Positions 23,722 to 52,146 of a stretch of DNA of 64,000 bases are shown in pieces. The DNA is from Vulcanimicrobiota bacterium. GTDB lineage: Bacteria; Vulcanimicrobiota; Vulcanimicrobiia; Vulcanimicrobiales; Vulcanimicrobiaceae. Both the position numbers and the translations under genes were made by a program. The stretch's first letter is position 1, and each line of letters starts with the position of its first letter. Below the pieces are notes generated by a model. The model was not told where the DNA came from, searched no databases, and worked only from the letters and a program-made list of their open reading frames with translations. The stretch covers positions 2,784,001 to 2,848,000 of the forward strand of contig OY970223.1 in assembly GCA_963714015.1 (NCBI GenBank), given 5' to 3'.

Positions 23722-24403
23722 ATGGATCCGCACGTCCTCGACGACCTTGGGGCCCTATATCATGACTACCGGCTGTTCGGCGTGCAGAACCGGCAGCTGC
23801 CCAACTTCGTCGTGAACCAGCGAGTCAAGGAACCCATTCTGCTGGGCTACATCTCGCTGGCCATGGGAAAATGCCGCGCCAACGTGGATCAGCCGGTATC
23901 CTTTGCCGAGCTCTTCTGCGCCGACGGATATTTCACGATGGTCGCGAGCTTGCTCGGTGCGCGGCCTGCCGTAGGCATCGACAACAATCGGGACGGCTGG
24001 AGCAACAACATGATGGAAGTCGCCCGCCGCTTGGGTTGTGACGTTCAGTTTCAGCAGCGTGACGTCAACGAGCTGAGATGGGGCCGGGACGTACGACGTC
24101 GTCGCAAACATCGGCGGCTTGTACCACGTCCCTAACCCGGTCGAGATCCTGCGCAAGTCTTGGAATCTGGCCCGGCGCTATCTTATCGTCCAAAGCGTGG
24201 TCTCGATGGCGAACGAAGGCGAAACGTACTTCGAGTCTCCCGCACCGGGATGGGCGCACGGCAGCCGTTTCAGCGCAAAATCGTTCATCAACATGCTGCG
24301 AATCGAAGGCTACAAGGTCGTTGACGGACACTTCAACGTGCTCGAAGGCAACACGCGCCCGGAAGACCGCGGCAGCGTCTATTTTCTGATCGAAAAAGCA
24401 TAA
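23722..24403 (+). CDS. Class I SAM-dependent methyltransferase; +1 frameshift near 24080
   Basis: ELFCADGYF motif I variant, GIDNN; second frame YDVVANIGGLYHVPNP. Confidence 0.7.
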
Positions 24404-24450
24404 CGCACCACTAAGCTAAACCAACGTTAAATCGGCGATGCGCGGCTTGC

Positions 24451-24477
24451 TATGAAAAGGGCCATCGCCGCCGATAA
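24451..24477 (+). promoter_or_regulatory. Candidate sigma-28 promoter
   Basis: TATG-N15-GCCGATAA (perfect -10, weak -35) 8 nt before ATG 24486. Confidence 0.4.
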
Positions 24478-24485
24478 CATCCACT

Positions 24486-25361
24486 ATGGACGTTCTTCAA
24501 AGAACCTTGGGCGGCTACGGCATGGGAGCGCAAAAACAGCGAGTGCCGGTGGCGCATTTAGGCCAACGACAAACTATGGGCTTTGCCCACCTGAATTCGT
24601 ATCTTCAAGAGATACTGGGTCCGCGCACGTTCGGCTCCGTGCTGAACATCGGCGCAGGGCGCATGAGCATCATGTTTCGTCAAGCGGAGATGTTTGCCGG
24701 CGACGAGTACCATACGCTCGAAACGCCGGGTGCGGATATCGAGGCTACATATCACTGCTACGGCGAGAATATGGACACCGTCCCAAGCGATCGCTACGAT
24801 TGGCTGATTTCGACAGCCGTATTGGAGCACGTCGCCGATCCTTGGGCGGTCGCGCGTGAAGCAATGCGCGTAACCAAGCCGGGCGGCTTCATCTACACGC
24901 TAACGCCGTTCTACCAGCAGGTTCACGTCGGCCCCACATACAGCGACTACTGGCGATTCACGCCCGCGGGGCTCGAAGCGCTCTTTCCCGGCTGTCGCTT
25001 GCGTGAAGTAGAGATCTGGGGAGACAGCCCAATCACGCCCAACGCTTTTGCAATCCTCGTACAGAAGCCTCCGTTTGAGGAAGCCGCGCAGCTCCGTACA
25101 TCTGGCTTGACTTCCCGAACGAAGATCCGTGGCGGCCATTCACGCCAAATGCTCGTACGCAGTATGATTGCCCGCTGTATCAGCTCGACGAAAACGCCGT
25201 TCGTGATAACGAACGAAATGCAAATGCTGCGCGAACAAATTAACGTTTCCACGGGCACCTTCGTCCCGATTCATCAGATCGTCCGGGGAAGCATCGATCG
25301 GTATGCGCGGCGTATAGGGACGCTCGGCTTCCGGGGCGACACATCGTACGTCAGCGGGTAA
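24486..25361 (+). CDS. Class I SAM-dependent methyltransferase
   Basis: VLNIGAG, STAVLEHVADP, RVTKPGG, DYWRFTPAGL. Confidence 0.85.
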   Translation: MDVLQRTLGGYGMGAQKQRVPVAHLGQRQTMGFAHLNSYLQEILGPRTFGSVLNIGAGRMSIMFRQAEMFAGDEYHTLETPGADIEATYHCYGENMDTVPSDRYDWLISTAVLEHVADPWAVAREAMRVTKPGGFIYTLTPFYQQVHVGPTYSDYWRFTPAGLEALFPGCRLREVEIWGDSPITPNAFAILVQKPPFEEAAQLRTSGLTSRTKIRGGHSRQMLVRSMIARCISSTKTPFVITNEMQMLREQINVSTGTFVPIHQIVRGSIDRYARRIGTLGFRGDTSYVSG

Positions 25362-25442
25362 TCGCTCGCATCGTCGCGCGCAACCGAGGCATCGCTGCCC
25401 AGGTTTGCGGGACTTTTTCTTTTCGCCTTCGATAATATTTAG

Positions 25443-26447
25443 ATGCGACTACTGGTCACCGGCGGCCTTGGATTTATAGGCTCGAACTTCATTCGTATCT
25501 TGCTGCGAGAGCGCCCAACCGCAACGGTCGTCAATCTGGACGCGATGACGTATGCCGGCAACCCGAACAACTGCGCCGACATCGCGAACGACCGCCGTTA
25601 CAGGTTCATCAAGGGCAACATCTGCGATCCGGCTGTCGTAGAAGCGGCAATCGAGGACGGCGTCGACGCCATCGTCAACTTTGCGGCCGAGACTCACGTC
25701 GATCGATCGATCCTCGACCCGGAAGAGTTTCTGCGGACGGACATTTTAGGCACTCACGTGCTGCTCGAAGCAGTTCGCAAGTTTCACATTCCACGCTACC
25801 TTCAAGTCTCCACCGATGAGGTTTACGGGCACGTGCCCGAGGGAGAATCGGCGGAATCCGATCCGCTTCGTCCGCGCAGCCCTTATAGCGCGAGCAAGGC
25901 CGGCGGCGACCTCCAAGTACTTGCATACTGGACCACGTACCGGACTCCAGTACTGATCACTCGCGGATCGAACACGTACGGCCCGTATCAATATCCGGAA
26001 AAGCTTATTCCGCTGTTCATTACGAACCTGATCGACGGCGAGAGTGTTCCCGTGTATGGCGATGGACTGCAAGTGCGCGATTGGCTTCACGTAAACGATC
26101 ACGCGCGCGGCATCCTTCACGTTCTCGAGCACGGAGAACTGGGCGAGATCTACAACATCGGCGGCGGCAATCCTCAAACCAACATCGACATCACGCGCCG
26201 GCTCATCGAAGCTTGTGGACGATCGATGGAAACCGACGTCAGGCACGTTGCGGACCGCGAGGGGCACGACCGGCGTTATGCGATTGACTGCACTAAGGCT
26301 CGAAAGCTTGGCTGGAAATCCGAAGTTCCGTTCGACCAGGGTCTCGCATCGACGATCGAGTGGTACAAGCGTAACGAGGCGTGGTGGCGGCCACTGAAGA
26401 GCGGCGAATTCCTGGCCTATTACAGGCGGCAGTACGCGCACAGATAA
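25443..26447 (+). CDS. rfbB: dTDP-glucose 4,6-dehydratase
   Basis: TGGLGFIGSNF, AAETHVDRSI, STDEVYG, PYSASK, EKLIP. Confidence 0.97.
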   Translation: MRLLVTGGLGFIGSNFIRILLRERPTATVVNLDAMTYAGNPNNCADIANDRRYRFIKGNICDPAVVEAAIEDGVDAIVNFAAETHVDRSILDPEEFLRTDILGTHVLLEAVRKFHIPRYLQVSTDEVYGHVPEGESAESDPLRPRSPYSASKAGGDLQVLAYWTTYRTPVLITRGSNTYGPYQYPEKLIPLFITNLIDGESVPVYGDGLQVRDWLHVNDHARGILHVLEHGELGEIYNIGGGNPQTNIDITRRLIEACGRSMETDVRHVADREGHDRRYAIDCTKARKLGWKSEVPFDQGLASTIEWYKRNEAWWRPLKSGEFLAYYRRQYAHR

Positions 26448-26470
26448 ACCTTGGAGCCGTTGACGGAAAC

Positions 26471-27295
26471 TTAGCCCTGATGGCGGCGGTAAAGTCGACG
26501 GTCCTCGGGTTGGTAGTACTCGTCCAGATTCGTTACGACGCGCGTGTAATAACCCAAGAGTTGCTGGGTCCTCGGCGGCAGCGACAAAACCACGTCATCC
26601 CCAAGCGCTCGAACGTAGTCGATCTGCTGCTTGATAAACGACCGCGTAAACTGGTGGTTCATTGCGAGACGGTCTCTTCCGGAACTGTTTTGCCCCGCTG
26701 CGTGCCAAATCGTTGAATCAAAGATCACCATCGAACCGCTCGGCGCTACAGCGGGGACGCTCGCTCGTTGCATGTAATCCGGATCGGGAAGCTCGCCACG
26801 TTGGTGGCTCCCTGGAACGAATAGCGTGGAACCGTTGCTCTCGGTAAACTCATCGATGGCAAAGAATACGTTGATGGACGCAAGATAGCCATTCAGGTAC
26901 CTGGGAAAGTCGCGATGGAATGTATTTTGGAAAACTGCAGGTGAAGCAACCGTGGCGCAAGAGGGCAGAATGAAGCCATTTTGGAGATGGAGTATCGCCG
27001 TATCACCCAGTGTTGCATCGACGACGCGCAGCACCGGTTCGAGCTGCAAGAAATCGAAGAAATGGCGGTCGTACCTCAAAAGGAGACGCAGAGTTCCGAT
27101 CTCACCGGCGGCTCTGAGTCTGTCCTCTCCAATCTCCGCAACGATACCGTCACGGGCACGACGAAGCGCTGAGCGCGTGCGGTCGACGAACTCTTCCGAT
27201 AGGACACCCGTCACGACCCCATATCCGTCGTCTCTGAGCGCCTGAAGCGTAAGATCCAGCCATCGGTCGTCTTTAAGGGAAACGAGGAATGTCAT
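26471..27295 (-). CDS. Phytanoyl-CoA dioxygenase family (2OG-Fe(II)) protein
   Basis: [24 protein letters not shown]. Confidence 0.88.
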
Positions 27296-28197
27296 CGCAC
27301 CAATCGCGCTAGGCCGAAACCGGTTCTTCCGTACGAATTTCCATTGTAGAGCATATACCTAACACCCGCGTGATCGAACACGTGAGGGTAGCAAACCATC
27401 TCTGAATCCCAGCCATCAGGACTAACGTCGATTCCGGCCTCCTCGTCCTTCCGGGTCCAATCGATTCCGTCCGGCGATTCCGCATATCCTATTCGGTACC
27501 GCTCGCCGCGGAAACAATACCACATCCGGTAGATCGCATCGTCCCTAATGACGCTCGGACGGGCGATTGCGTACTCGCCAGGCTTGAAGTCAACGCACAC
27601 CCGGCCATCCCGGCGCCAAAAAATACCGTCATCCGATTCTGCATACCTGACATGATAAAAGTGCTTTGGAGCGCCGTTCTCGAGTTCCCATCGCTGACCG
27701 GAGATGTACCACATTCGCCAGAATCCCCTATCCCGCATTACAAACGGCGAGGCAGTCAAGAACGGGTCAGTGGGGTTGCGGTCGATAATCGGCGCGAGCG
27801 AAAGCTTCGCGTAGTTGAGCGCGGCAGCTTCGCTCGTTGCAAGCCCGATGTTGTAATAAAACGGCACGGTTTTTCCCAGCATGACGCCCGTGAAATACAT
27901 GAACTGACGGCCTTCGTGCACGACCGCCGAGGCGCTAAGCACGCCACGGTCATCGAAAGCCCCTAGAGGCCCAACCGTCAGAATTGGCGTCTTCGATATA
28001 ACGGCCGATCCTACCGGATCGCGAAGGTCGGTCTCGACATAGCCGATTTGGGCGCGCCCCTCGCGGTCACGTCCGGAGCAGTAGACCCGCACTCGAGTTC
28101 CTGCCAGCGGCGTTGCAAAAGGGAGGGCCGCATGCGTCACCATCCAATCCGCGGCATTCTCCGGATCGACGATCCGTCCGAGTTTCTGCCACTTCAT
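27292..28197 (-). CDS. Five-bladed beta-propeller glycoside hydrolase-like protein
   Basis: Repeats [38 protein letters not shown]; end [14 protein letters not shown]. Confidence 0.7.
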
Positions 28198-29788
28198 CCT
28201 GCAAGCCGTTCTGCGACGAGCTCGCGAATGATCTCTGCGTAACGAGCAGTGCTCGCCCGAAGGTTGTATTGTTCGACGACGCGCTCGCGCAACGCGTTTC
28301 CGTCGACTACGCGGGCTTCAGGATCGTTTATGTAGCGCCGCGCGATTTCAACATAAGCCCCGATGTCGCCGGCGTCCGCTATCGGAACGATTCCGTCGAG
28401 TCGGGTCTCTGCAGTAGCCGTTATGGCACCGGCGCTCGTTGGGTCCAGATCGGGGTCTAAGGCGCGGCGCATGCCGACGATCGGCAGACCCGCTTGCATA
28501 GCATCCATTAGGCTCTGCCCACCGGTCCATGGATGAGTATCGCAGTAAAGATCAACGCTCTTTACCAGACGCGGTGCATCAGCTTGACGCATCCCTAAGT
28601 ACACAGTTTTGTTTGCAACGGCGCGGCGATCGAAGAACGCTCGAATTGCGGGCAGCCGGCCTGAAGAATCGGGGCCCGCTAAGACCAGCCACGCCTTTGC
28701 TTCAGATTCGAGAATCCTGGCCAGGCTCTCCAGGTACACGGGAGTGTCGCACTTTTCGATTCGACCGAACGTCGCCAGCGCAACCGCATCGCTGGGAATG
28801 CCGAGCTCGCTTTTCTGAATCGGCGTCGCGGCGTCTATTTCGTCTGCCATTGCGACGCCGCCGCCCGTAAAGCGGCTCTTTCCCGGCCACGCAGTTTTTA
28901 TCTCCTGTTCCGGCGAGACGCCATGATTGATAAGGTCGAATTTCCCGACCTGCGGTTCCAACGCACGGACGTCGAACGTTTGCACGGGAGCGACGCCGAT
29001 ACAGGCGATGAGTTTCGCCAAATTGTCAACGGCGGACGTAAGATAGACGGCCACATGCGGTTGGCGCACGTTGAAGTAGTTTATGAGCCAGCGCGTTCGC
29101 TGTTCCCACGTGCCGGCAGGCGTTTCGGCGAACGACACGCCGAGATCTCGCAGGATGCGAACTATCCGCGAACCGGCGCTGGCACCCATGCCGGTCGAGA
29201 CAACCTCCACCGAAAATCCGAGAGCCGAAAAATACTCTGTACGCTTGAGCGTCATTACGCTGGGTCCATCTTCGTCCGCAAGTACCGAACACAGGCAGAC
29301 CATCCTAAGGAGTCGGAACGCGCTGCGCCAAAGCGCGGACCCGGGACGAATGTGGCGAGCTTTTCGATCGCCCTGTCGATCTCGATATCGTGAGCGAATC
29401 TCATGGCGCGCCGGGAGCGCGCGTCCCGCCGCTGACCAGATGCAAAGCCGCGGTTCACAGCTTCTTGCAGATACTGCATGGCCGCATCGACGCTCCCTGC
29501 TTGCGCCGCTTGAATTCCGAGCCCCTTGAGGACCTCGATGAACGGCTCGTCCCAGTCTGAAATCTCGAGCAAGCGCTGGACCGCGTTCAGCGTTCCTTGG
29601 TCAGCGTACTGTTGCTCTCGCGCCAAATTCGCAGTCGCCTGCAAGGCGCTGCGAATAGCCGTCTTACCCAAGGCCAGGCGGGCAGTCGCGCGTGCCTTCG
29701 CGTCCCCCGACTCTAGTAAATCGCTCAACTCCGACTCGCTGAAATCCAACCGCGCGTTGATTCCAGCGATCAGTTCTTGAAGCGTCAT
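28194..29788 (-). CDS. GT41-like (OGT/SPINDLY/HMW1C) glycosyltransferase with helical N-terminus; frameshift near 29305
   Basis: ATFGRIEK and DLYCDTHPWTGGQSLMDAMQAGLPIV resemble the GT41 C-terminal signature; two abutting ORFs. Confidence 0.65.
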
Positions 29789-29877
29789 GCCGCGAGGTTC
29801 GCGGCAAGAAATGGTGACACCCGTAACACCGCGAAGGCCCTCCACGATGCACCGGACCACAAGATCGGAGGCGCTAG

Positions 29878-30618
29878 ATTAAGGGTGTAATTCTTGCAGG
29901 CGGCCTAGGAACGCGGCTTCGCCCTTTAACTAAGGTCACGAACAAGCATCTCCTGCCGATCTACGACAAGCCGATGATCTATTACCCGATCGAGGCTTTG
30001 TGCCGAGCCGGCATTCGGGATATTATGATCGTGACGGGCGGGAATTCCGCGGGCGATTTTCTTAGACTGCTCGGAAACGGCAGAGAGTTTGGACTCAAGG
30101 ACATCAACTATACGTACCAAGAAGGCGAAGGAGGGATCGCGGACGCGCTAAAACTCTGCGAACACTTCGCCGAAGGCGATAGAATGTGCGTCATCTTGGG
30201 CGACAACATCGTTCAAGACGACATCTCTCCGTACGTGACTAAATTTCTAGAGCAAGATTCAGGCGCCCGCATTCTCCTCAAGCGCGTCGACGATCCCGAG
30301 CGTTTCGGCTGTCCGGTCCTCGACGGAGACCGAATCGTCGCAATCGAAGAAAAACCGCAAAGTCCAAAGAGCGAGTACGCCGTGACCGGAATCTACATGT
30401 ACGACCGGCGAGTGTTCGATTTTTGCCGCCGCCTCGAACCTTCGGCTCGCGGAGAGCTCGAGATCACGGACGTCAATAACGCTTACATTAAGGAAGGCGA
30501 CCTCTTCTACGATGTCCTCGAGGGATGGTGGACGGATGCCGGACAGTTTGAAAGCCTGTTGCGCGCTAATCAGCTCGTAGCCGAAATACGGCGAGTCCAA
30601 CCGAGCGCAACCGAATGA
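29878..30618 (+). CDS. rfbA: Glucose-1-phosphate thymidylyltransferase (short form), ATT start
   Basis: In-frame KGVILAGGLGTRLRPLTKVTNKHLLPIYDKPM from 29881; EEKP, RGELEITD. Confidence 0.93.
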   Translation: MKGVILAGGLGTRLRPLTKVTNKHLLPIYDKPMIYYPIEALCRAGIRDIMIVTGGNSAGDFLRLLGNGREFGLKDINYTYQEGEGGIADALKLCEHFAEGDRMCVILGDNIVQDDISPYVTKFLEQDSGARILLKRVDDPERFGCPVLDGDRIVAIEEKPQSPKSEYAVTGIYMYDRRVFDFCRRLEPSARGELEITDVNNAYIKEGDLFYDVLEGWWTDAGQFESLLRANQLVAEIRRVQPSATE

Positions 30619-31277
30619 AAAAAGCGGTCGTCTTCGGCGTCGGCGACTTCGCTCAGGTCGCTTCACTCTATCTTCGGGATGATAGCGAATACAAAATCGA
30701 GGCTTTTACGGTGAACAGAGCGTACATCGAACGGGAAAGCCTTTTGGATTTGCCCATAGTTGCGTTTGAAGACTTGGACCAAAGTTACCCAAGCGGCGAA
30801 TTCGCAATCTTCGTGGCAATTGGTTTCAGCAAGGTAAACGCGGCTCGCCGATCCGTTTTCGAGGCCTGCCGAGAGCGCGGGTACGTCGTACCAACGTACG
30901 TTAACTCCACTGTGAACGTATGGAGGGAAACGTCCATCGGAGACGGTTGCTTCATTTTCGAGAACAATGTGATTCAGCCGTTCGTCGAGATTGGAAGCAA
31001 CTGCGTGCTTTGGAGCGGGAACCACATCGGCCACCATTCGAGAATCGGCGACAACGTCTTCATTGCAAGCCATGTCGTTATCTCCGGAAAGTGCAGTATC
31101 GGAAACAATACGTTTATCGGCGTGAACGCAACTTTCCGTGACGGCATCACGGTGGGTCCGGACTGCGTTATCGGTGCCGGCGCCATCGTTCTCAAGGACA
31201 CCGTAGAAAGCGGCGTGTACAAGAGCGTCAACACGGAGCCGCAGGAACGCCGCAGCCACGAGCTCCGGAACTTCTAA
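30615..31277 (+). CDS. Hexapeptide-repeat sugar acetyltransferase (NeuD/PglD-like)
   Basis: N-terminal Rossmann-like VFGVG, left-handed beta-helix repeats, IGHHSRIG. Confidence 0.88.
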   Translation: MKKAVVFGVGDFAQVASLYLRDDSEYKIEAFTVNRAYIERESLLDLPIVAFEDLDQSYPSGEFAIFVAIGFSKVNAARRSVFEACRERGYVVPTYVNSTVNVWRETSIGDGCFIFENNVIQPFVEIGSNCVLWSGNHIGHHSRIGDNVFIASHVVISGKCSIGNNTFIGVNATFRDGITVGPDCVIGAGAIVLKDTVESGVYKSVNTEPQERRSHELRNF

Positions 31278-31281
31278 TCCC

Positions 31282-31995
31282 GTGAGCGGCCCGCGCGTCG
31301 GCATTATTCAGTCGAATTACATTCCTTGGAAAGGGTATTTCGACTTTATCGACAGCGTCGACGAATTCGTACTTTTCGATGAGGTCCAATACACGCGCCG
31401 GGACTGGCGCAACCGCAACAGAATCAAAACCAAAGACGGATTGAAGTGGCTCACTATCCCCGTTGAAGTCAAGGGAAAGTACGACCAGCGAGTCAGCGAA
31501 ACGCGCATCTCCGACAAGCGCTGGGCCCACGAGCACGCATCTTCGCTACGGCATGCGTACGGAAAATCTCCGCACTTTCGCGAAGAGTGGACGTGGATAG
31601 AACCACTGTATGAAGAAAGCGCGTCGGTCGATTTTTTGAGCAGCGTAAACGAACTCTTCATTCGCGCGATCCGTGACCGGTTGTCGATTCAAACGCCGAT
31701 ACGGCTTTCCTCGGAGTTCGATTTACCCGACGGCAAGAACGAACGCTTGATTTCGATCTGCAAGCAACTTGGAGCCGCTGAGTATTTGTCCGGACCTGCC
31801 GCGCGCGGCTATATTGACGAGAGCCTTTGGACGGCGGCAGGTATCCGCGTCACCTACAAGTCCTACGACGATTACCCGGAATACGCACAGCCATACCCTC
31901 CTTTCGAGCACGCCGTCTCTATAGTCGATTTGCTCTTCAACACGGGCCCTCAGGCGCCAAGCTACATCAAAGGGACCGCGGATGTCCGTTCCTGA
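31282..31995 (+). CDS. WbqC family protein
   Basis: QSNYIPWKGYFD, DWRNRNRIK, YLSGPAARGY, SIVDLLFN. Confidence 0.9.
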   Translation: MSGPRVGIIQSNYIPWKGYFDFIDSVDEFVLFDEVQYTRRDWRNRNRIKTKDGLKWLTIPVEVKGKYDQRVSETRISDKRWAHEHASSLRHAYGKSPHFREEWTWIEPLYEESASVDFLSSVNELFIRAIRDRLSIQTPIRLSSEFDLPDGKNERLISICKQLGAAEYLSGPAARGYIDESLWTAAGIRVTYKSYDDYPEYAQPYPPFEHAVSIVDLLFNTGPQAPSYIKGTADVRS

Positions 31996-32623: not shown

Positions 32624-32628
32624 GCCTC

Positions 32629-43561: not shown

Positions 43562-43562
43562 G

Positions 43563-43958: not shown

Positions 43959-43986
43959 ATTTCGGCGCAAAAACGGCGTCAATTTA
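43959..43986 (-). promoter_or_regulatory. Sigma-28 promoter of flaG-fliD-fliS
   Basis: TAAA-N16-GCCGAAAT, then AGGAGG SD. Confidence 0.7.
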
Positions 43987-45952
43987 GGCCGGCACCGCCG
44001 AGGAGGCTTGGGCGTAGGCCGCCACGGTCTCGCGGAAACAGCGATCCGCATCGCAATCCGAGGCGACGGCGGCGAGCAGCGCTGCGGGCGGGCGGTGTTC
44101 CCAGGCTTGGCGCAACCCCGCCTCAATCGAAGCGACGTCGGCGACGTCGGCCTCAATGACCGCCGCCCACATGGCGGCGGCGTAAGATTTTGCGGCCGCG
44201 ACGGCGCTGCATCCGCTCAAGAGAGCCCGGGCGATGCGGCTGGAGCTGGTCTGCCACCACGAGACGTCGGCGAAGACGCGCGCCCGCAGGTAAAGACCGG
44301 CCAGCTCCCCCGGCGTAGGCTTGGGAATCAGCACGACGCCGCTATCGATTTCCTCGCGCAGGCTTGGCAAAGTAGAGTGAGTCGGCAACCGGGCCCGCGA
44401 TCACCAGCGGCATCCCCGCCTGACGCGCGGCGCGCACTAAGAAAGACAGATTCGTGTACGGCGCGATGGGCGCGTGCGCCAAAATGAAATCCCACGTCCC
44501 GGCGAGGGCGTCGACGGGTTCGAACGTCTGATTCGCCGGAAGATACGCCGGAACGAACCGGGACTGGCCGGTATAGCCGAAGCGCGTCCGCATGAGCTGT
44601 TCTTCCTGTGCGCCGCTCACGAGCAAAAGATCGACTTTGGAGAGCACCGCGCGTACGCCGCGGTCGAACCCGGGAACCGGCTCGGCGTCGGACGGGACCG
44701 ATTCGTTGGTGTTGAGCCGGCGCTTCGCGATCATCTCCATGTAGTGGTTCATGGCCGTTTCGTCCGCGGCGGTGCGCATGAGCGCACCCGTTACGCCCGT
44801 ACCCCACCGCGTTTCCGCCGTAATATTCGACATCGCGGCCGTCGCGACGATTGGAATCGACCTTTCCCGCGCTCGATCCAAGAGCGGCAAATGTCCCGTC
44901 TCTCCGGCTCCGAAAACGTGCAGCAGATCGACCGATGAAAGATCGATGCGTGCATCCGTGGAGCTGCGCAATTCGGCAGTGAAGCCCTCAGCCGAGAGCC
45001 GCGCCTGCAATTCCGCCGCGTCATCGCCGTCGGCGAGCGAATCGCGAATGGAGTCGGCGTGGCGGACGATCAGGATTCGTCCCGACGATCCTCCCACCAC
45101 CGCGGGTGCGGCCGGCAGCATGCAGTCGCGCCTGTTCTTTTTCTGCTTCACCATCACTCGGAACGACCGCACGGGCGGCGCGTCCTCCGGATCGAACGAA
45201 ACGCAAATCTCGGTTGGAACCGGCGTTGCTACTTCAACGAGCTGCCCCTCATCGCCGTCGAAGCGGATTTCGACCTGCGACCCTTCCAGCTGAATTCCAA
45301 CCTCGTAACTGCCTTCCAGCGGCCCAAAGATCGCGCGGCCGAACCACGCGCGTGCCAAGGCATTCAACTCCGCATCGAGCAGATCGCATTGCACGCGTTG
45401 CGCAAAAGGAGCCAGCAGCGCGGCGCCGGTAGCGCCGCAGCGATCGTTGATGCCGATGTTCGCTGCGTCTGCAAAACGCCGGGCATAGTAATACGGCGCA
45501 GCGCAGGCGGCCAGGTCGCCATATGGCGCAGCGCCGGCAAACGCCGCAGAGCGTGCGAGCTCGAAGCTGCGTTCGCTGACCGCGTCCGAGAATCGTCGAA
45601 TGATCTCCGTGTTCATTTGCCGGGACAAGCTCTGCGCGAGCATCCACGGGAGGACGCGGTCTTCGACTGCATCGAGAACGTCTGCCGGGACCGCCGCCGC
45701 ACAGTCGTGGGGCCAGAGCAGCACGGAGGACTCGCGTTCGACGAGCATCTCGTGCGCAATGCGAATCGCCGGAAGCGCCAATATTTCGGCGCCGTCGGAG
45801 AACGTCAAATCCAGGCACAGGGAAGCCTGCTCGCGTCGCGTGAAGACGGGCTCGATTCTCGCGACGGCGAGAAGATCGGGAGTTACCAGGCGCCGCAGAT
45901 CGGCCGCGGTACGCGAAGCCGGGAATGCCGGCGGCGTTGCATTTACTCTCAT
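43984..45952 (-). CDS. Divergent GT-B (GT4-like) protein with methyltransferase-like N-terminal part; frameshift near 44365
   Basis: DLLHVFG, NLSFLVRAA...PLVIAGP, LYLRARVFADVSWW..ALLSGC across two frames; ATGA overlap with upstream GT2. Confidence 0.6.
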
Positions 45953-48561
45953 GCCGCTCCCTTTGCAGGCGCAATGCGGCGCAAGGCGCTGGGACTGCGC
46001 TCGATCAGCTCGGGCAGCCCGTCGAACGCCGCTTCGCCGCACGCCTCGAGCCGGTACACGGCATCACCGCGCAGCGCCGACACCCAACGATCGATGTCAT
46101 CTTCGTCGCTGACGATGACGTCCGCGATCTCTTCGGCGCCAAGATGCATTTTCTGCAGCATGCGCTCGACTCGGATGCCCAGCGTTGCGGCGGATATTTC
46201 GCTCGGGGCCGCAATGGACAACAGCGTATCGTCGCCCAATCCATACGCGTTCACGTAGCGCTTTACGAAGGCGCCTACGCTTCCCCAATCCCGTTCGTCT
46301 CGAACGACCGCCGCAATGACCAGCCCGTAGCTGCGGTCCTCCCCTTGCATTGGCTGAGTCACGGCCGGAAGCGCAAAGTAGTGCGCGCCGCGATCGAAGC
46401 CGCGGGCGATGGCAGGGCCCAGATCGTAGCCGTTGGCCGGGTATTCCGGCGGTAGATTCCATTTCGCCGCAAACTTCGTCCAATTCGTGCGCATCGTCGC
46501 AGCGTAGTCGACTTTGTTGGCTGCGAACGACCGCGAACCGAAGTGGTGAATGAATACGTCATCGCAGACGTATATTTTATAGCCCGCTGCTCGCACGCGA
46601 ATCGAATAGTCGTCGTCCTCGAAGTTTCCGAGCCCGAAGCGTTCGTCCAAGCCTCCGACTTCCTGGATGACGCGGCGGTCGATGCAAAGGCAGAGGCCGA
46701 TGGCGCGATCGGTAAGATAACCCTGGCCGCGATAGCGCAGCGCGCGACCGCGCGCAAATTCGGCAAGGCCGTCGGGGCCGGTATACTGCGCGTCCGGTAC
46801 CAACTGATCGCCGGCGATCTGGTTGCTGCGCGGAGCCGAGATGCCCAAGCCCGGCACGCGATCGAACGCTCCGAGCAGACCGTCGAGCCAGCCTTCGGTG
46901 ACGGTCACGTCATTGTTGAGCAGGACGACGAAGTCGCCGCCGGCGTGCGCGATGGCTTGATTGTTTCCAGCGGCGTACCCGCGGTTGACCGGATTGAGAA
47001 TGACGCGAATACCCTCTTGCGCTTTGAGCCAGGCAACGGTTTCTTCGTTCGAGCCGTTGTCGACGATCAGGATCTCATAAGGGCCGGTCGTCCAGCGGCG
47101 AATCGACTCGAGCGCAATCTTGGTGTATTCGAGAGCGTTCCAGCTCAGCATGACGATCGAGACGAGACCCCGCGAACGTTTTGAAACGGCGCGCAGACGC
47201 TGCTCGATGCGATCCGGATCGCTGGTCACGACATTCGCAAGCGAAGGCTCCAAAGGGGGTAAGGTTACAAACTCGCTGCGCGCCAAACGCGTGCCGCGGC
47301 GCAGGTCGATGCCCCGCTCGAGGAAATCCGCCACGGTCGCCCCGATGGAACCGCAATACTCCAAGCGATGATGCTGCGGATACTTGCGCAGCGAGATGAG
47401 CGTGCAGCGGGCATCGGCGGCATAGAGTCCGGCGTCACCGCCGGTTCCGGCCTCCGGCGCATAGGCTGCTGCGCCGTTCGTCCAACAAAATTCGAGCTGG
47501 AGCACGAGTTCGTCCAGCCATCCCGCCCGCAGACTGCACCCCGTGTCCACGAACGCCACGCAACGATCGCCGCGACGTTCCATCTCGGCGCGCGCCGTTG
47601 CGACGCCTTTTTCGTCGCCTCCGATATAGACGACGCGATCGATCGGCGTCACGTTGCTGCGCAGCATGCGAAGGAACTCGGAATCTCGCGTGCGATCGAC
47701 CGAACCATGACAAATGATTGTTACCGCGGGATTCTCAACCGAGTCGCAGTAATACTTTCCCCGTGCGCGGCGCACTTCGCGCCGGTTGTGCCCGCGTACC
47801 ATCAAATGCATCGGCCCGTCGTATTCAACCGTGCCGTTCCACCGCTGGGCCAGCAGTTGGCTGTTCCAAGCAACCTTGCGAAACCGCTGCGTACCGGATT
47901 GAGACTCGAAATGGGTGAGCACTGCGCCGGCTTGATACACGATGCGCAGACCGCGCGAGCGCAGCTTGAGACAGTAGTCGATGTCCTCGTAGCCGTTCCA
48001 GTAACGTTCGTCCAGGCCGCCCACTTCCAAGTACAGATCGCGCGGCGTGAGCAAACACGCGCCGGTGATGGTTTGCAGATCGCGTGACTCCGACGCGTAA
48101 GCAAACGCCTCGGGATATTGATACATGTCGTGCGACGGAGTAAAGGCCTCGGTGCCGAACCGGTTACCGTAACTCACGACGCCTGCGTGCTGAAGTGTTC
48201 CGTCCGGAAAGAGTAGACGCGCGCCGACGGCGCCTACAGCAGGATCCGCGGCGGCCGCGAGCATTGCGGCCAGCCAGCCCGGCTTTGCTTCCGTATCGTT
48301 GTTCAGCAGCACGAGAAACTCGCCGCGGGCAAGCCGGGCACCCTGATTATTCGCGCCTGCGAAGCCGAGATTGCGCTCGTTGCGCACGACTCGGACCCAA
48401 GGAAACTCTTCCAGCATCTGCGGGGTTTCGTCGGAACTGGCGTTGTCGATGACGATGATTTCGCCTTCGCCAGCGCCTTCCAGCGTCGGCCGAAGCGTCT
48501 GCAGACAGTGGCGGGTCAGCGCGGCTTTGTTGAATACCGGAATGACGATCGAGTAGTTCAT
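45949..48561 (-). CDS. Multi-domain GT2 glycosyltransferase
   Basis: Two full GT2 domains (IDNASSD/LLNND/EDIDY and VDNGS/LLNND/EDDDY) plus a degenerate middle module. Confidence 0.92.
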   Translation of the reverse strand: MNYSIVIPVFNKAALTRHCLQTLRPTLEGAGEGEIIVIDNASSDETPQMLEEFPWVRVVRNERNLGFAGANNQGARLARGEFLVLLNNDTEAKPGWLAAMLAAAADPAVGAVGARLLFPDGTLQHAGVVSYGNRFGTEAFTPSHDMYQYPEAFAYASESRDLQTITGACLLTPRDLYLEVGGLDERYWNGYEDIDYCLKLRSRGLRIVYQAGAVLTHFESQSGTQRFRKVAWNSQLLAQRWNGTVEYDGPMHLMVRGHNRREVRRARGKYYCDSVENPAVTIICHGSVDRTRDSEFLRMLRSNVTPIDRVVYIGGDEKGVATARAEMERRGDRCVAFVDTGCSLRAGWLDELVLQLEFCWTNGAAAYAPEAGTGGDAGLYAADARCTLISLRKYPQHHRLEYCGSIGATVADFLERGIDLRRGTRLARSEFVTLPPLEPSLANVVTSDPDRIEQRLRAVSKRSRGLVSIVMLSWNALEYTKIALESIRRWTTGPYEILIVDNGSNEETVAWLKAQEGIRVILNPVNRGYAAGNNQAIAHAGGDFVVLLNNDVTVTEGWLDGLLGAFDRVPGLGISAPRSNQIAGDQLVPDAQYTGPDGLAEFARGRALRYRGQGYLTDRAIGLCLCIDRRVIQEVGGLDERFGLGNFEDDDYSIRVRAAGYKIYVCDDVFIHHFGSRSFAANKVDYAATMRTNWTKFAAKWNLPPEYPANGYDLGPAIARGFDRGAHYFALPAVTQPMQGEDRSYGLVIAAVVRDERDWGSVGAFVKRYVNAYGLGDDTLLSIAAPSEISAATLGIRVERMLQKMHLGAEEIADVIVSDEDDIDRWVSALRGDAVYRLEACGEAAFDGLPELIERSPSALRRIAPAKGAA

Positions 48562-48570: not shown

Positions 48571-50538
48571 CTACGCAAGGGCCAATTTGGCAGCGTTGCG
48601 AGCTTCTTCCAAACGCCCGGCGCGCACGAGAAGGTCCGTATAGAGCTGTAGTCCGTCGACGTGCTTTGGATCGGTTGCGAGCAACTGCCCAAGCACTGTT
48701 AACGCCTCGGTCGTACGCCCAATCTCGCGCAGCACGGCGGCATGGAGGTATGCTGCGAGCGGGTAGACGTCACCGTCGGCCGGAGTAATGGGCTCAACCG
48801 CAGCAATCGCCTCTTCCTTGCGTCCGAGGTTGGCGTAAGCGATCGCGCAGCTGTAGTTCAGGCGCGCATCGCGCGGATCGATTTCCAAGCCGCGCAGCGC
48901 ATACTCCAACGCCTTCGCATAGTTTTGATGCGCCAGCAGGATGTTGAAGCGGCGGACGAACTCCGCGGGAGTCTGCGGATCCCAAGACGAGTCTTCGGCG
49001 CGAATTCGCTCGATAGCCGCGCGATCGCCGGCTTGCGCGTAAGCCTTCTCCAGCATATTCGCCACGTCGGCGCTTCGCGGCGCCAGCGCTCGGGCCGCCG
49101 TCAAATAGCGCACCGGGTCCGCGCCGTTCCGGGGCGCAACTGCTGCGGCGGCCATCAGCATCTGAACGGCGACGGCCTCGGGCAGCTTCGCATACGCCGC
49201 TTCGATGATCCCGAGTGCTTCGGATTCTTTGTGGCGGCGCAGCAGATAGTTCACGAGCTCCAGGGCCGGCTGTTCTCCCCCGAAGTCATCGTAAACGCTG
49301 CGAAATGCCGATTCTGCTTCGGGATAGCGTCCTAAGCGCTCCAGCGCTTTGGCATAATTTAAGCGCAGCGGCTCGACCTTCGGACGATTGACCAGCCCGC
49401 GTTCGAACCACTCGAGGGCTTTGACGTCATCCGCCTGGGCGACGTACGTCGATCCGATCTCGCATTGCGCTTTCCACGCCGGGACTTCGTCGTCGACGAT
49501 GAATTGGCGGTCCGAAAACTCGCCGTCCGCGATGGCGCACTCGTACATCGCGCGCGCTTCGTCGTAGCGCTTGAGTTCCACGAGCGCCTTACCGGCGGAG
49601 AAATGCGCGTTCGCATAGCGCGGCGCGAGCTTCAAACACTCTTGCGCCCATTCCAAGCCCTTCTCGGGCTGGTTTTTCCGCTCGGTGTAGACGTCGGCCA
49701 GCGTCTGCAGGCCGTTGGGCGTAAAGCCGCGCAAGCCGTGTTTGCGGCAAAGCTCCCACATGCGCTCGAAGCCCTGAATCGCGCGATCCGCATCGCCGCC
49801 CAGGAACGCCGTCATGCCGTAGTTGTACCAATGAAACGACTCTTCGGGCTCGCGCGCGACGGAAGCTTCCACAATCTCCATGTTGCGCGCCAGCTTGTCG
49901 CGGTCGTCGACCACTTCGTTCAGGTAACCGTGGTGAACGATTTTCAGGGAAGAGTTGCATGCGTCGAGCGTCTGCGAGGCATCGTCGAGGCTGGGAAATT
50001 CGTGGATTGCGCCGTGAAAACGGATCCGTTCGGTATTCGGAAACACTCGCACGATCGCGTGTGAGACGGTGCCGCCTCCCCGATACTTGTCGGAGGCGTT
50101 CACGCAACGGATCCAGACGCCTTTCAGGTGCGCCGGCGCAACGGCGATCGATCGCAGATCCGCCTTCGACTCCGCGACGAATTCCTCGTCGGCGTCCAAC
50201 TGCAGAATCCAGCGCTTCGTCGCCATCTTCAGCGCCTCGTTGCGCGCCCAGCCGAAGTCGTTGCGCCATTCGCGCTGCTCGACGCGCGCGCCGAACCGCT
50301 TCGCAATTTCAATTGTCCGGTCGGTCGAGCCGGTGTCGACGATGTTGATCTCGTCCACGACGTCCGCGACGCTGGCAAGGCACCGTTCCAGGAAGCGCTC
50401 TTCGTTCTTGACGATCATGCACAGGCTTATCCCGGCCGGAAGCTGCGCCCATCCGGGCGGCGGCTCAGGCAGGCCGAACGGCATGGCGCTCGCAGGGGCA
50501 GGCGCGGCCGATCGGCGGGCCTTCACACGAAGTGGCAT
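48571..50538 (-). CDS. GT2 + TPR glycosyltransferase (flagellin glycosyltransferase-like)
   Basis: ISLCMIVKNEE, VDTGSTD, LDADE, GAIHE, HHGY, then TPRs; directly downstream of flagellin; start uncertain. Confidence 0.9.
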   Translation of the reverse strand: MPLRVKARRSAAPAPASAMPFGLPEPPPGWAQLPAGISLCMIVKNEERFLERCLASVADVVDEINIVDTGSTDRTIEIAKRFGARVEQREWRNDFGWARNEALKMATKRWILQLDADEEFVAESKADLRSIAVAPAHLKGVWIRCVNASDKYRGGGTVSHAIVRVFPNTERIRFHGAIHEFPSLDDASQTLDACNSSLKIVHHGYLNEVVDDRDKLARNMEIVEASVAREPEESFHWYNYGMTAFLGGDADRAIQGFERMWELCRKHGLRGFTPNGLQTLADVYTERKNQPEKGLEWAQECLKLAPRYANAHFSAGKALVELKRYDEARAMYECAIADGEFSDRQFIVDDEVPAWKAQCEIGSTYVAQADDVKALEWFERGLVNRPKVEPLRLNYAKALERLGRYPEAESAFRSVYDDFGGEQPALELVNYLLRRHKESEALGIIEAAYAKLPEAVAVQMLMAAAAVAPRNGADPVRYLTAARALAPRSADVANMLEKAYAQAGDRAAIERIRAEDSSWDPQTPAEFVRRFNILLAHQNYAKALEYALRGLEIDPRDARLNYSCAIAYANLGRKEEAIAAVEPITPADGDVYPLAAYLHAAVLREIGRTTEALTVLGQLLATDPKHVDGLQLYTDLLVRAGRLEEARNAAKLALA

Positions 50539-50546
50539 CGCACTAG

Positions 50547-50575
50547 TAATCGGCCCAACAACGTGTCCCGCTTTA
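50547..50575 (-). promoter_or_regulatory. Candidate sigma-28 promoter of glycosyltransferase operon
   Basis: TAAA-N17-GCCGATTA, 8 nt before ATG 50538. Confidence 0.45.
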
Positions 50576-50634
50576 GTTAAGAACCGCAAAGAATATGACG
50601 GGGAACTCACTGCTGCCTGGGCCGGTCCCACGTT

Positions 50635-50852
50635 CCCGGGTCGCCGCTAGAAAATCAGCGTCCTGCAGTCTTTGATGCGCAGGGTGCGAGCCGCCATGCC
50701 CCCGAGGCGCGCTCCGACATTTTTGCGTAAACCACGGATGGTTTCTTCAAAGCTTGCTTTCGCAAAAATGCGGCGCGAGCAGAAAATTCCCATGGAGGGG
50801 AATTTTCTAGCGGCGACACGGGGGCATGGCGGCTCGCACCCTGCGCATCAAA
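50635..50852. repeat. Structured palindromic element with perfect 34-bp inverted repeat (REP/MITE-like or ncRNA)
   Basis: 50671-50704 is the exact reverse complement of 50819-50852; 50640-50655 is the exact reverse complement of 50802-50817; internal hairpins. Confidence 0.8.
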
Positions 50853-50865
50853 AACCGCCCCCTAA

Positions 50866-50897
50866 TAAAAAAAGGAGCCCGCCGAAGCGGGCTCCCT
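50866..50897 (-). terminator. Intrinsic terminator of flagellin gene
   Basis: GGAGCCCGC-TTCG-GCGGGCTCC followed by T7 on minus strand. Confidence 0.9.
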
Positions 50898-50915
50898 TGA
50901 CCAGCCTTGAACCGA

Positions 50916-52146
50916 TTAACGGAAGAGGCCGAGAACCGACTGTGCGTTGGCGTTCGACTGCGCCAAGACCGAGGTGCCGACTTGCACCAGGACTTGAAGC
51001 TTCGTGAACTCCGTGGTCGCTTGGCCCACGTTGAGGTCGCGAATTGCCGACTCGGACGCTTGCAGGTTGACCGAGGCAACGCTGTCGTTGTTCGCATCTT
51101 CGTTCAGACGAACGACGACCGCACCGAGCTGGGCCTGCTGGCCGAGCAGCGTGTTGAGCGCGTTGTCGATCTGACCGATGGCGTCTTCCGAGGAGAGCAC
51201 GCCGGCGGCCGTGTTCGCAACGTTGATGTTGGAGATACGGAGCGCCTGGGCGTTCGTCGCCTGGATGCCGATCTGCACGGTGTCGCCTTCGTCAGCGCCC
51301 GACTGGACGGTGAACGGACCGGCGGCCGAGCTCGAGGCTGCGACGGCTTGGTTGACCTTGATGAACGCCGTGGTGCCCGCATCGCCGAGCGAAACGTTGC
51401 CGACCGTGATCGTGAGACCGTCGACGGTGATCGCGCCGGTGTTGGCGGCGTAGTTGCCGATGACTTGGGCCGGCACCGACGTCGAGGTGTTGGTGCTGGA
51501 CCAGAACGACACTTGAACTTCAACCGTCGAGCTGTTCTTGTTGATGACTTGCAGCTCGACCGTTCCGTCTACCGCGCCGGCATTCGTCGTCTGGAAGCTG
51601 GCGGTCGTTCCGACGCTGGCAACGAGATTGCCGCTGCCGGCACCGGCGCCCGCTTGCGCCAGAACGGCGTTCGACGTGATGTTGAACGTCGAGGCCTGGT
51701 AGGCCTGGAATCCGGAGTGGCTGCCGTCGAGCAGAGCGGCACCGTTGAAGTTGGTGTTCTGCGCGATGCGGTTGACTTCCAGAAGCAGCTGGTTGATTTC
51801 GTCCTGCAGATTCTGCGTGTCGGACGGGCTGTTGACGCTGCTGGCCGCTTCGACGGCTAGGCCGCGGATGCGCTGCAGGATGTCGGTTTCCGTGGAGAGC
51901 GCGCCGAGCGCGACTTGTGCCGCGTTGTTCGCGTCTTGAACGTTCTGCGAAGACTTGGTTGAACGCGTCGACCTGCGTCTGCAGGTTGGTCGCGATTGCG
52001 TTGCCGGACGGATCGTCGGCAGCAGAGTTGATGCGAAGACCGCTCGAGAGCTGCGTAACGGTGTTTTGCAGCGCGGCTTGGTTTTTGTCCAGATTGTACT
52101 GGACTTGGTTGGCCAACAGATTGTTGGCGATACTCAGACCTGGCAT
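50916..52146 (-). CDS. fliC: Flagellin; +1 frameshift near 51953
   Basis: LSSGLRINSAADDPSG, ILQRIRGLAVEAA, NTNFNG, QAQLGA, ESAIRD, VLAQSNA..QSVLGL. Confidence 0.95.

Follow-up and report, generated by a model that had tools for sequence, protein, structure and literature searches.

Flagellin glycans are known to shape filament assembly, surface charge, phage attachment and host recognition, and those known from bacteria are built on nonulosonic acids, viosamine derivatives or N-acetylhexosamines, or are phospho- and sulfonate-capped. In Listeria, the flagellin O-GlcNAc transferase GmaR joins a GT2 glycosyltransferase domain to tetratricopeptide (TPR) repeats, while the rhizobial NodP/NodQ/NodH proteins pair a dedicated synthesis of 3'-phosphoadenosine 5'-phosphosulfate (PAPS) with a carbohydrate sulfotransferase for Nod factor. 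Three further systems are close in other respects. The viosamine island of Pseudomonas syringae pv. tabaci comprises vioA, vioB, vioT, vioR, vioM, fgt1 and fgt2 (PMC3927599). Type B flagellin of Clostridioides difficile bears an O-linked glycan that ends in an amino-deoxyhexose with an anionic sulfur cap and methylated rhamnose (PMC5207245), which demonstrates that flagellin glycans of bacteria can carry sulfur oxyanions. In Halobacterium salinarum, the sulfotransferases Agl30 and Agl31 act on the N-linked tetrasaccharide of glycoproteins that include archaellins (PMC11980604). Here we describe positions 23722-52146 of a 64,000-nucleotide stretch of contig OY970223.1 (assembly GCA_963714015.1, positions 2,784,001 to 2,848,000; hereafter the window) from an uncultured soil bacterium of the Vulcanimicrobiota (Eremiobacterota), which we read, with moderate confidence, as an island for the O-glycosylation of flagellin that is linked in part to sigma-28 and encodes both a PAPS supply of its own and a glycan sulfotransferase.

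The open reading frames (ORFs) of the window, whose G+C content is ~60%, were compared with Pfam and NCBIfam. Housekeeping genes (ispG, rseP, dxr, cdsA/uppS, frr, pyrH, tsf and rpsB) extend up to 23.1 kb and are followed by a gene for a STAS-domain protein, after which the island proper (23722-40686) runs through two methyltransferases, rfbB, a PhyH-family gene, a GH130-like gene, a GT-B glycosyltransferase of ~550 residues, rfbA-vioB-WbqC, TauE-cysNC-cysD, wecE, the sulfotransferase and an AAA_22/506-residue gene pair. Next, and entirely on the minus strand, comes the filament block, with a FliT-like gene, fliS, fliD, flaG, a GT-B-like protein of ~660 residues, a double GT2 protein, a GT2-TPR protein and flagellin. 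The minus-strand block continues beyond flagellin with csrA, fliW, flgL, flgK and rod/ring genes to 61.5 kb. A reading of this DNA made from its letters alone (the sequence-only reading) had listed the sugar, sulfation and glycosyltransferase genes among these and proposed that they build a cytoplasmically attached, sulfated flagellin glycan; the gene list is present at 23722-52146 with two small exceptions, and every in silico test points the same way, none of these tests being chemical.

The putative sulfotransferase gene (37285-38172, minus strand) encodes a soluble protein of 295 residues with a marginal match to Sulfotransfer_3 (28.5 bits, against a cut-off of 27) and none in NCBIfam. A search of PDB sequences with its profile gave nothing meaningful (best E value 0.16, to unrelated proteins). 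Its AlphaFold model has a predicted local distance difference test (pLDDT) score of 90.5 and a predicted template-modelling (pTM) score of 0.87, and all but two of the 50 PDB matches listed for it by Foldseek are sulfotransferases or the related retinol dehydratase, the exceptions among those listed being adenylate kinase and dephospho-CoA kinase at ranks 42 and 49. The best matches are OLS/CurM domains, TPST1/2, the mycobacterial proteins Stf9, Stf1 and Stf0, and heparan sulfate 3-OST, with a best E value of 7.6e-7 and template-modelling (TM) scores of only 0.43-0.50. The marginal Pfam match, the lack of a PDB sequence match and the modest TM scores together indicate a divergent family. It is also a large one, with 2037 homologues at E <= 1e-5, many of which carry a precomputed PF13469 annotation. 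Two motifs stand out: LGMHRSGTS at residues 16-24, which we take to be the 5'-phosphosulfate-binding loop, and RHPRDVAKS at residues 146-154, presumably the Arg/Ser motif that binds the 3'-phosphate. In an alignment of 33 sequences, the motif residues H19, R20, G22, T23, S24, R146, P148 and S154 either do not vary or reach a conservation of at least 90%. Fold and motifs confirm the gene product as a predicted PAPS-dependent sulfotransferase of the P-loop fold.

The genes that would supply its donor lie close by, also on the minus strand. The small subunit of ATP sulfurylase, cysD (35207-36016), matches NF003587 at 300 bits (cut-off 195). It is followed by cysNC (33382-35210), a CysN GTPase fused to an adenosine 5'-phosphosulfate (APS) kinase, which matches GTP_EFTU and APS_kinase (E 8.7e-57) and exceeds the cut-off of the APS kinase family TIGR00455 (205.9 against 138.7 bits). 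The cysNC reading frame is broken in the window, and its two frameshifted pieces reach 370.8 and 136.2 bits with NF004035 (cut-off 715); the proteins of thirteen relatives span the break, and the G motifs of CysN and the P-loop of the APS kinase are intact. A TauE/SafE (TSUP) anion permease (32638-33385; PF01925 E 5.5e-30), whose C-terminus continues in another frame, completes the group; by hydropathy, no other protein of the island shows membrane-like segments. Among the 41 ORFs scanned for export and sulfate-reduction genes (15-56.6 kb), we found neither cysH nor cysI, and likewise no cysJ in the window. The same 41 ORFs hold no Wzx, Wzy, Wzm, Wzt, Wza or initiating phosphoglycosyl transferase, as the sequence-only reading had asserted for both sets of genes.

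The association of these genes with the flagellar filament recurs in relatives. Scanning genomes with an alignment built from 24 members of the family returned 79 sulfotransferase loci (handles of the form L001), 63 of them outgroup loci and the 16 closest in metagenome-assembled genomes (MAGs) of Eremiobacterota/Vulcanimicrobiota, the window's own genome not being among them; sulfotransferase identity in these 16 is 41-58%, and their ORFs were searched with the window proteins (phmmer). Synteny of the sulfation genes with the filament genes, which the sequence-only reading had named as a check, is evident. Within 10 kb of the sulfotransferase lie fliS, the FliT-like gene, AAA_22 and the 506-residue gene in 13 of the 16 loci, fliD in 12, flaG in eight, cysD in 10, cysNC in nine, TauE in eight, rfbA, rfbB, wecE and WbqC in 10 each, and vioB in eight. 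The three loci that have no nearby fliS are L006, L008 (a short contig on which that side is missing) and L012 (where the flank ends in a weak GT-B-like match). The usual order in relatives is flaG-fliD-fliS-fliT-like, the 506-residue and AAA_22 genes on the other strand, cysD-cysNC-TauE-sulfotransferase, and then methyltransferase, glycosyltransferase and sugar genes. As in the window, rpsB/tsf lie at the far side of the island in L001, L003 and L012.

In six relatives (L002, L009, L011, L014, L015 and L016) cysD, cysNC, TauE and the sulfotransferase are contiguous on one strand. L003 keeps the order with a weak methyltransferase-like match between TauE and the sulfotransferase, L008 begins its contig with TauE-sulfotransferase, and in L001 and L013 no cysDN is in reach; in the window itself, wecE separates the sulfotransferase from cysD. 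The uninterrupted run on one strand links the making of PAPS with sulfate transfer and not with assimilation. Gene order inside the island differs between lineages and the linkage to fliS/fliD persists. The gaps of 12 loci contain 71 further ORFs, which include methyltransferases (TylF, FkbM and others), GNAT, ATP-grasp, acyl-AMP ligase, SDR and PhyH proteins and, except in L006, no export genes. Export genes co-occurring with the island independently of flagellar genes, which the sequence-only reading had thought telling against itself, were seen among these ORFs in L006 alone. The loci depict a hypervariable glycosylation island that keeps the same chromosomal position next to the filament genes, and in the window this is probably a variable flagellin O-glycosylation island, equipped with its own sulfation module, between rpsB and the flagellar filament operon.

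Promoter motifs point in the same direction. The sigma-28 consensus is of the TAAA-N15-GCCGATAA type. Upstream of flagellin stands a canonical element of this kind, TAAAGT-N13-GCCGATA (52220-52245, minus strand), 26 nt ahead of the flagellin leader and the sole TAAA-N14-16-CCGATA match in the window, where 0.15 are expected. The sulfotransferase is preceded by a sigma-28-like element, TAAC-N16-GCCGATAA (38217-38243, minus strand), whose CCGATA box is conserved in relatives, and the methyltransferase-rfbB unit by an intergenic CCGATA box resembling a sigma-28 -10 element with a weak -35 (24471-24476, plus strand). As this last box lies only 10 nt before the annotated ATG, the true start of the methyltransferase may be further downstream. 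Between 22 and 63.5 kb there are only four intergenic CCGATA boxes, each facing the next gene (flagellin, flgF, the sulfotransferase and methyltransferase-rfbB); the motif in the gap before flgF reads TAAA-N16-GCCGATA, and the gene directly upstream of flgF across that gap (61573-63187) encodes a PMT_2 (ArnT-like GT-C) membrane glycosyltransferase.

Counting the window, 14 of 17 genomes carry CCGATA within 200 nt upstream of the sulfotransferase N-terminus, compared with 144 of 3012 background windows (4.8%); the box is absent in L001, L006 and L013. Because L008, L009, L011 and L014-L016 are close relatives and count as one lineage, the box is carried by about eight lineages. A longer motif that includes a -35-like TAA occurs 10 times in 303 kb of the relatives' loci, where 100 simulations with a Markov model gave 2.0 +/- 1.4 (maximum 6), and five of the 10 copies lie directly before the sulfotransferase and three directly before the 550-residue glycosyltransferase. 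In L003, L007 and L010 the motif TAAGC-N14-GCCGATTC precedes cysD. Since flagellin, the sulfotransferase and methyltransferase-rfbB all carry sigma-28-type elements, at least these genes are predicted, from the motifs, to be expressed with the late flagellar genes. In a generic scan of 36-52.4 kb for sigma-70 promoters and terminators, hits were no more frequent than expected by chance (4 promoter-like elements against 3.1 expected, and 18 terminator-like against 18.2), the strong terminator of flagellin being the one that stands out.

The sugar that would be modified can be outlined from the remaining island genes. Downstream of its CCGATA box, a gene for an S-adenosylmethionine (SAM)-dependent methyltransferase (24486-25361, plus strand; Methyltransf_11 32.7 bits, cut-off 21.2) precedes rfbB, dTDP-glucose 4,6-dehydratase (25443-26447, plus; TIGR01181 435.6 bits, cut-off 365.1). 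Further on, and likewise on the plus strand, lie rfbA, glucose-1-phosphate thymidylyltransferase (29881-30618, the ATG-started ORF being 29974-30618; TIGR01207 E 2.1e-58), a NeuD/PglB/VioB-family sugar N-acetyltransferase (30615-31277; TIGR03570 184.3 bits, cut-off 160.8), a WbqC-like protein of the kind found in O-antigen amino-sugar clusters (31282-31995; PF08889 E 1.2e-75), and a wecE/rffA-type dTDP-4-keto-6-deoxyhexose 4-aminotransferase (36138-37298). The aminotransferase passes both NF008687 (539 bits, cut-off 375) and TIGR02379 (495.5 bits, cut-off 434.85), and among NCBIfam models it scores best as the WecE type (galacto configuration) and not as VioA. All four enzymes of a dTDP-4-amino-4,6-dideoxyhexose pathway are therefore present, with RfbB, WecE and the VioB-family protein above their cut-offs and RfbA below (197.7 against 360.65 bits, scored on the ORF lacking 31 N-terminal residues). 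The conserved N-terminus of RfbA (29866-29885) begins with ATT, which stands right behind an in-frame TAG and has a GGAGG ahead of it, and there is no ATG, GTG or TTG until residue 32; this reflects either a rare ATT start or a base error.

Further tailoring functions accompany these enzymes. A probable methyltransferase (23722-24403, plus strand) is split into two ORF pieces, both covered by one 336-residue protein in L002; the window piece has a methyltransferase match at E 0.024, and the L002 orthologue matches Methyltransf_31 at E 5.6e-6. With the SAM-dependent enzyme above this makes two methyltransferases, where the sequence-only reading had counted three. A third candidate, a 134-residue ORF at 43984-44388 (E 0.21), was rejected as the C-terminus of the 660-residue GT-B-like protein. 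On the minus strand, a PhyH-family 2-oxoglutarate/Fe(II) dioxygenase (26471-27295; PF05721 E 6.8e-28) adjoins a GH130-like gene (27292-28197), with which it is also paired in relatives. The product of the latter has the five-bladed beta-propeller fold of glycoside phosphorylases/hydrolases, as judged from a PDB profile match to 1,2-beta-oligomannan phosphorylase (E 2.8e-14), an AlphaFold model of pLDDT 88.3 and a Foldseek TM score of 0.73 to 9fj8.

Four glycosyltransferases, predicted to be soluble, could assemble and attach the glycan. Adjoining flagellin is the 686-residue GT2-TPR protein (48571-50631, minus strand), which matches Glycos_transf_2 at E 3.3e-20 together with many TPR families, and the SunS-family model TIGR04195 at E 1.7e-30, under its cut-off; by analogy of architecture it is a candidate flagellin-binding initiating glycosyltransferase. 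Next to it lies an 870-residue protein with two GT2 domains (45949-48561, minus; Glycos_transf_2 E 2.1e-52 in two stretches), followed by the ~660-residue protein (43993-45952, minus), a divergent GT-B-like protein that in the window has no Pfam match. Its Atlas look-alikes are all GT4 (0.93), the PDB GT-B profile gives E 0.1-0.5, and single proteins of five relatives span both of its ORFs. The three flagellin-adjacent glycosyltransferases previously proposed thus hold good for the first two, with the GT-B call on the third being weak. The fourth, of ~550 residues, has an N-terminal helical domain (28194-29860, minus; Glyco_trans_1_4 E 1.8e-5); single proteins of six relatives span both of its ORFs, and the L008 orthologue matches at E 2.1e-7. 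It had earlier been called GT41-like, of which the glycosyltransferase assignment stands and the GT41 label is weak (E 0.017).

Flagellin itself (50916-52146, minus strand) matches Flagellin_N and Flagellin_C on two frames, with the break between the N-terminal helices and the rest, and the 179 central residues are 24% Ser+Thr, compared with 12.4% in other proteins. Because a strong intrinsic terminator (50871-50898, minus; a 12-bp stem with eight GC pairs and a T run) follows it, flagellin forms its own transcription unit. Between this terminator and the glycosyltransferase operon lies an inverted repeat of 46 nt around 102 nt (50665-50858), 91% complementary with a 30-nt perfect core, whose interior holds further small palindromes. 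It is the sole such pair in the window, with an RNA fold of -175 kcal/mol (z = -11). A promoter switch that inverts to control the glycosyltransferase operon, a small mobile element and a structured untranslated region are all conceivable roles for it; no recombinase gene was seen in the window. The FliW-CsrA-flagellin partner switch is known from Bacillus, and here fliW and csrA (52147-53084) lie directly upstream of the flagellin gene, whose leader has GGA motifs around the ribosome-binding site.

Taken together, the families identified suggest a pathway in which the substrates and the order of steps are our proposal. RfbA and RfbB would form dTDP-4-keto-6-deoxyglucose, which the WecE-type aminotransferase would convert to dTDP-4-amino-4,6-dideoxyhexose, the amino sugar then being N-acylated by the VioB-type enzyme. 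WbqC, the methyltransferases, PhyH and the GH130-like propeller may tailor the sugar or its acyl group. The GT2-TPR protein would be the likely flagellin-docking initiator, acting on Ser/Thr in the cytoplasm before flagellar type III export, and the double GT2 and two GT-B-like proteins would extend the glycan. TauE would supply or balance a sulfur anion, CysD and the CysN-APS kinase would make PAPS, and the sulfotransferase would use PAPS to sulfate a hydroxyl (or amino) group on the glycan, either at the stage of the nucleotide sugar or on the protein. We infer, from gene content and motifs, both that the glycan sits on flagellin and that it is sulfated.

Beyond the phylum, the sulfotransferase family keeps different company. 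Contexts were assigned by Pfam for 27 outgroup loci and by home-made hidden Markov models for all 63, the labels of 36 coming from those models only. Flagellar markers lie near the sulfotransferase in four of the 63 (L019, L020, L032 and L055), a Wzt-like ATP-binding cassette (ABC) ATPase in 17, a fused ABC exporter in five (L022, L024, L033, L037 and L048) and an APS kinase in 10 (e.g. L029, L033, L061 and L064). Many outgroup sulfotransferases are the N-terminal domain of giant multi-glycosyltransferase proteins (2335 residues in L035 and 1622 in L040; also L038, L041 and L072). Fusion or proximity to multi-glycosyltransferase proteins and exporters suggests that the family acts on glycans, with the context deciding the target. 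We speculate, from context, that sulfate in the Wzt/Wzt_C or multi-glycosyltransferase settings may mark the chain end of ABC-exported polysaccharides.

Three of the flagellar outgroup loci are clear cases. L019 reads flgI-flgJ-flgN-flgK-flgL-fliW-sulfotransferase-GT4/GT2. L020 has cheA-fliW-flagellin followed by a sulfotransferase-TPR protein of 601 residues (9770-11572), and L032 has fliW-csrA, then a sulfotransferase-TPR-methyltransferase protein of 756 residues (9881-12148) and a triple-GT2 protein. The TPR fusions suggest, by analogy, docking on a protein substrate. These Verrucomicrobiota fusions (L032, L020) are followed by 1900-residue multi-glycosyltransferase/TPR/methyltransferase proteins. 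In L055, labelled as an Oscillatoriaceae cyanobacterium MAG, flagellin-like and GT2-TPR-like genes adjoin the sulfotransferase homologue; to our knowledge flagella are not known from cyanobacteria, and the contig may be mis-binned. No sigma-28-like -10 box was found before the sulfotransferase in L019, L020, L032 or L055. In a maximum-likelihood tree of 80 sulfotransferase domains the Eremiobacterota form one clade (support 100/93) with L006 nested inside, and L019, L020 and L032 belong to a distinct clade of Verrucomicrobiota type (100/98), next to which stand a Binatia sequence and the Stella sequences, all from exporter contexts. Mapping the flagellar label onto this tree requires four changes, so flagellar linkage arose more than once.

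From these distributions a wider proposal may be drawn, which we put forward tentatively and at somewhat short of even odds: that flagellated Eremiobacterota and some Verrucomicrobiota bear a sulfate-ester filament glycan, a sulfotransferase family of ABC-dependent pathways having been captured at least twice by flagellin islands, in one case with sigma-28 control and private PAPS and in the other with TPR docking. As part of the same tentative proposal, the Eremiobacterota sulfotransferase would stand behind a sigma-28 promoter, be supplied by cysD-cysNC-TauE and be timed to filament assembly. L003, L010 and L013 encode the 4-aminotransferase and have no VioB acetyltransferase within the flank, and a bolder version would place sulfate on the 4-amino group there, as a sulfamate.

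Several considerations weigh against a sulfated flagellin glycan. The case for it is drawn from gene content, gene neighbourhood, structure models and promoter motifs. The Ser/Thr richness of the flagellin core is permissive but ordinary for flagellins. The 13 syntenic loci belong to related genomes and are not 13 independent observations. The sequence-only reading had called the whole system sigma-28-controlled, which holds for flagellin, the sulfotransferase and the methyltransferase-rfbB unit, but not for the PAPS operon, rfbA-vioB-WbqC, wecE or the glycosyltransferase operon, since no sigma-28-like box precedes cysD or any of the others in the window; nor is there a fliA or other sigma-70-family gene among the scanned window ORFs. 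Flagellin, cysNC, TauE, fliD and two glycosyltransferases are frameshifted, and should these breaks prove genuine, this strain would have no working system. L006, nested in the Eremiobacterota sulfotransferase clade, has ABC-2 membrane and ABC ATPase genes together with rmlC/D, and no flagellar genes. Finally, in the outgroups the sulfotransferase is found mainly in the company of ABC polysaccharide exporters (22 of the 63 loci, whereas four have a flagellar context).

The last two points also speak for the most serious alternative, serious because of the contexts in which the family occurs outside the phylum, namely that the product is a sulfated envelope glycan (O-antigen, capsule or S-layer) with carrier and export genes elsewhere, the flagellar neighbourhood being inherited gene order with no functional link. 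The Pfam identification of Wzt (with Wzt_C) in four Stella-type loci (L017, L018, L025 and L026) and the giant multi-glycosyltransferase fusions noted above fit such a product. So, too, do rfbA, rfbB, wecE and WbqC, which are classic O-antigen genes, and the GT-C enzymes (PMT_2) elsewhere in the window. On the other hand, an O-antigen or exopolysaccharide cluster would be recognized by an exporter and an initiating transferase within it, and neither is encoded in the ORFs of 15-56.6 kb; the relatives' 71 additional ORFs, L006 apart, also provide no exporter, flippase, polymerase or initiating transferase. The fliS/fliD linkage survives rearrangement of the island, the sulfotransferase is preceded by its sigma-28-type box in most of the genomes compared, and in another phylum sulfotransferase-TPR fusions adjoin flagellin or fliW-csrA. 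With these observations in hand we regard an envelope glycan as unlikely, at perhaps one chance in five.

A second alternative is that the cluster is decaying, the frameshifts in flagellin, fliD, cysNC, TauE and two glycosyltransferases being real. Three-frame translation and tblastn of relatives' proteins against the window reveal single-base frame changes in at least nine genes between 17 and 52 kb: dxr (~18130), uppS (~19385), the first methyltransferase (~24075), the 550-residue glycosyltransferase (~29320), TauE (~32765), cysNC (~34760), fliD (~42190), the 660-residue GT-B-like protein (~44340) and flagellin (~51900). Nine such changes over this distance would suit decay, and as only two of the nine lie near a homopolymer run of at least five bases, the homopolymer explanation is not demonstrated. 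Breaks are just as frequent in essential genes (dxr and uppS), however, and split genes also occur in relatives' long-contig MAG records (in rfbB of L003 and L007 and in AAA_22 of L002), for which reasons the nine frameshifts are probably long-read assembly indels and do not mark pseudogenes. The single shifts aside, the frames are unbroken and conserved; for fliD, whose true end is at 41578, the proteins of eleven relatives span the break. We therefore hold a pseudogene cluster to be improbable. Two apparent long ORFs, a uppS-cdsA 'fusion' (18438-20276) and a 453-residue TauE ORF, were rejected as frameshift artefacts.

About as improbable is sulfation of protein side chains (Tyr, Ser or Thr of a flagellar protein) in the manner of tyrosylprotein sulfotransferases. 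TPST1/2 are among the best Foldseek matches of the island enzyme (E 1.7e-6 to 2e-5, TM 0.44-0.50), and the Verrucomicrobiota TPR fusions hint at protein docking. The TPST matches are no better, however, than those to polyketide, lipid and carbohydrate sulfotransferases, relatives of the enzyme are fused to or beside glycosyltransferases and polysaccharide exporters, and the larger flagellin ORF piece (344 residues) has two Tyr. Least probable of all is that cysD-cysNC-TauE represent ordinary assimilatory sulfate activation that lies here by chance, with the sulfotransferase unrelated to flagella: CysDN and CysC do feed PAPS reductase in many bacteria and a cysH could sit elsewhere in the genome, but the one-strand run in six relatives, the APS kinases near outgroup homologues and the lack of cysH, cysI and cysJ in the window all count against it.

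A few other features of the region complete the description. Between the sulfotransferase and the filament block, an AAA_22 (ExeA/GspA-like) ATPase and the 506-residue protein are encoded on the plus strand (38249-40686; AAA_22 E 3.1e-20, and TIGR03015 at 124.5 bits, under its cut-off of 324.5). The 506-residue protein has a DUF11-like Ig domain, a Pro-rich linker and a helical C-terminus, and the Atlas search returned DUF11 Ig leads only, below 0.9. The pair is kept, divergently transcribed, between fliS/FliT-like and the sulfate genes in 13 of the 16 Eremiobacterota loci (L001-L005, L007, L009-L011, L013-L016). The adjoining minus-strand genes at 40694-43931 are flaG, fliD and fliS (Pfam FlaG, FliD_N/C and FliS) and that of the 134-residue helical FliT-like protein. 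Two more GT-C-type genes lie at 1765-2844 and 3663-5327. Over the whole window, Rfam returned no families and ARAGORN no tRNAs.

In the literature searched, of which subscription journals were mostly outside, we found no bacterial flagellin glycan with a sulfate ester and no sulfotransferase/PAPS module in a flagellin glycosylation island, and nothing on Eremiobacterota and flagella that describes such a system, as the sequence-only reading had supposed for this lineage; within that literature, bacterial flagella have so far no reported sulfate decoration. V. alpinus WC8-2, the one Eremiobacterota strain in culture, is without flagella and lacks a flagellin gene (PMC9758169). A sulfated filament, if true, would bring to bacteria a strongly anionic chemistry so far known from archaella, and would open a first functional approach to the cell surface in a soil phylum that is widespread and almost uncultured. 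The large, uncharacterised sulfotransferase family, split between flagellar and O-antigen contexts, is a useful source of glycan sulfotransferases.

How, then, does the locus compare with the systems introduced at the outset? With GmaR it shares, in architecture only and with no anti-repressor role implied, the two-part GT2-TPR design of the 686-residue protein beside flagellin. The C. difficile type B glycan differs in that its sulfur is a sulfonate (taurine in a peptidyl cap) and not a PAPS-derived sulfate ester, with no cysDNC/sulfotransferase module reported to take part (PMC5207245). The Halobacterium Agl30/Agl31 system is alike, by description, in placing sulfate esters on the glycan of a motility filament by dedicated sulfotransferases, one of them soluble; it operates within archaeal lipid-carrier N-glycosylation with an oligosaccharyltransferase, and on an archaellum that is unrelated to the flagellum (PMC11980604).

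The two nearest parallels each account for one half of the locus. NodPQH resembles it, again by description, in that CysD and a CysN-APS kinase are encoded with a sugar sulfotransferase and serve a glycoconjugate rather than cysteine; there the acceptor is a lipo-chitooligosaccharide, and neither a flagellar linkage nor a TauE is part of the system. The Pseudomonas viosamine islands share the dTDP-4-amino-4,6-dideoxyhexose pathway (enzymes of RmlA and RmlB type, an aminotransferase and an acyltransferase of the VioB family), methyltransferases and soluble flagellin glycosyltransferases by the flagellin gene, as well as the cytoplasmic O-linkage to Ser/Thr that we propose here (PMC3927599). The present island, from another phylum, has a WecE-type aminotransferase in place of VioA, and its glycosyltransferases are of the GT2-TPR, double GT2 and GT-B-like kinds. 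To this it adds cysD-cysNC-TauE and a sulfotransferase, neither of which is reported from the Pseudomonas system.

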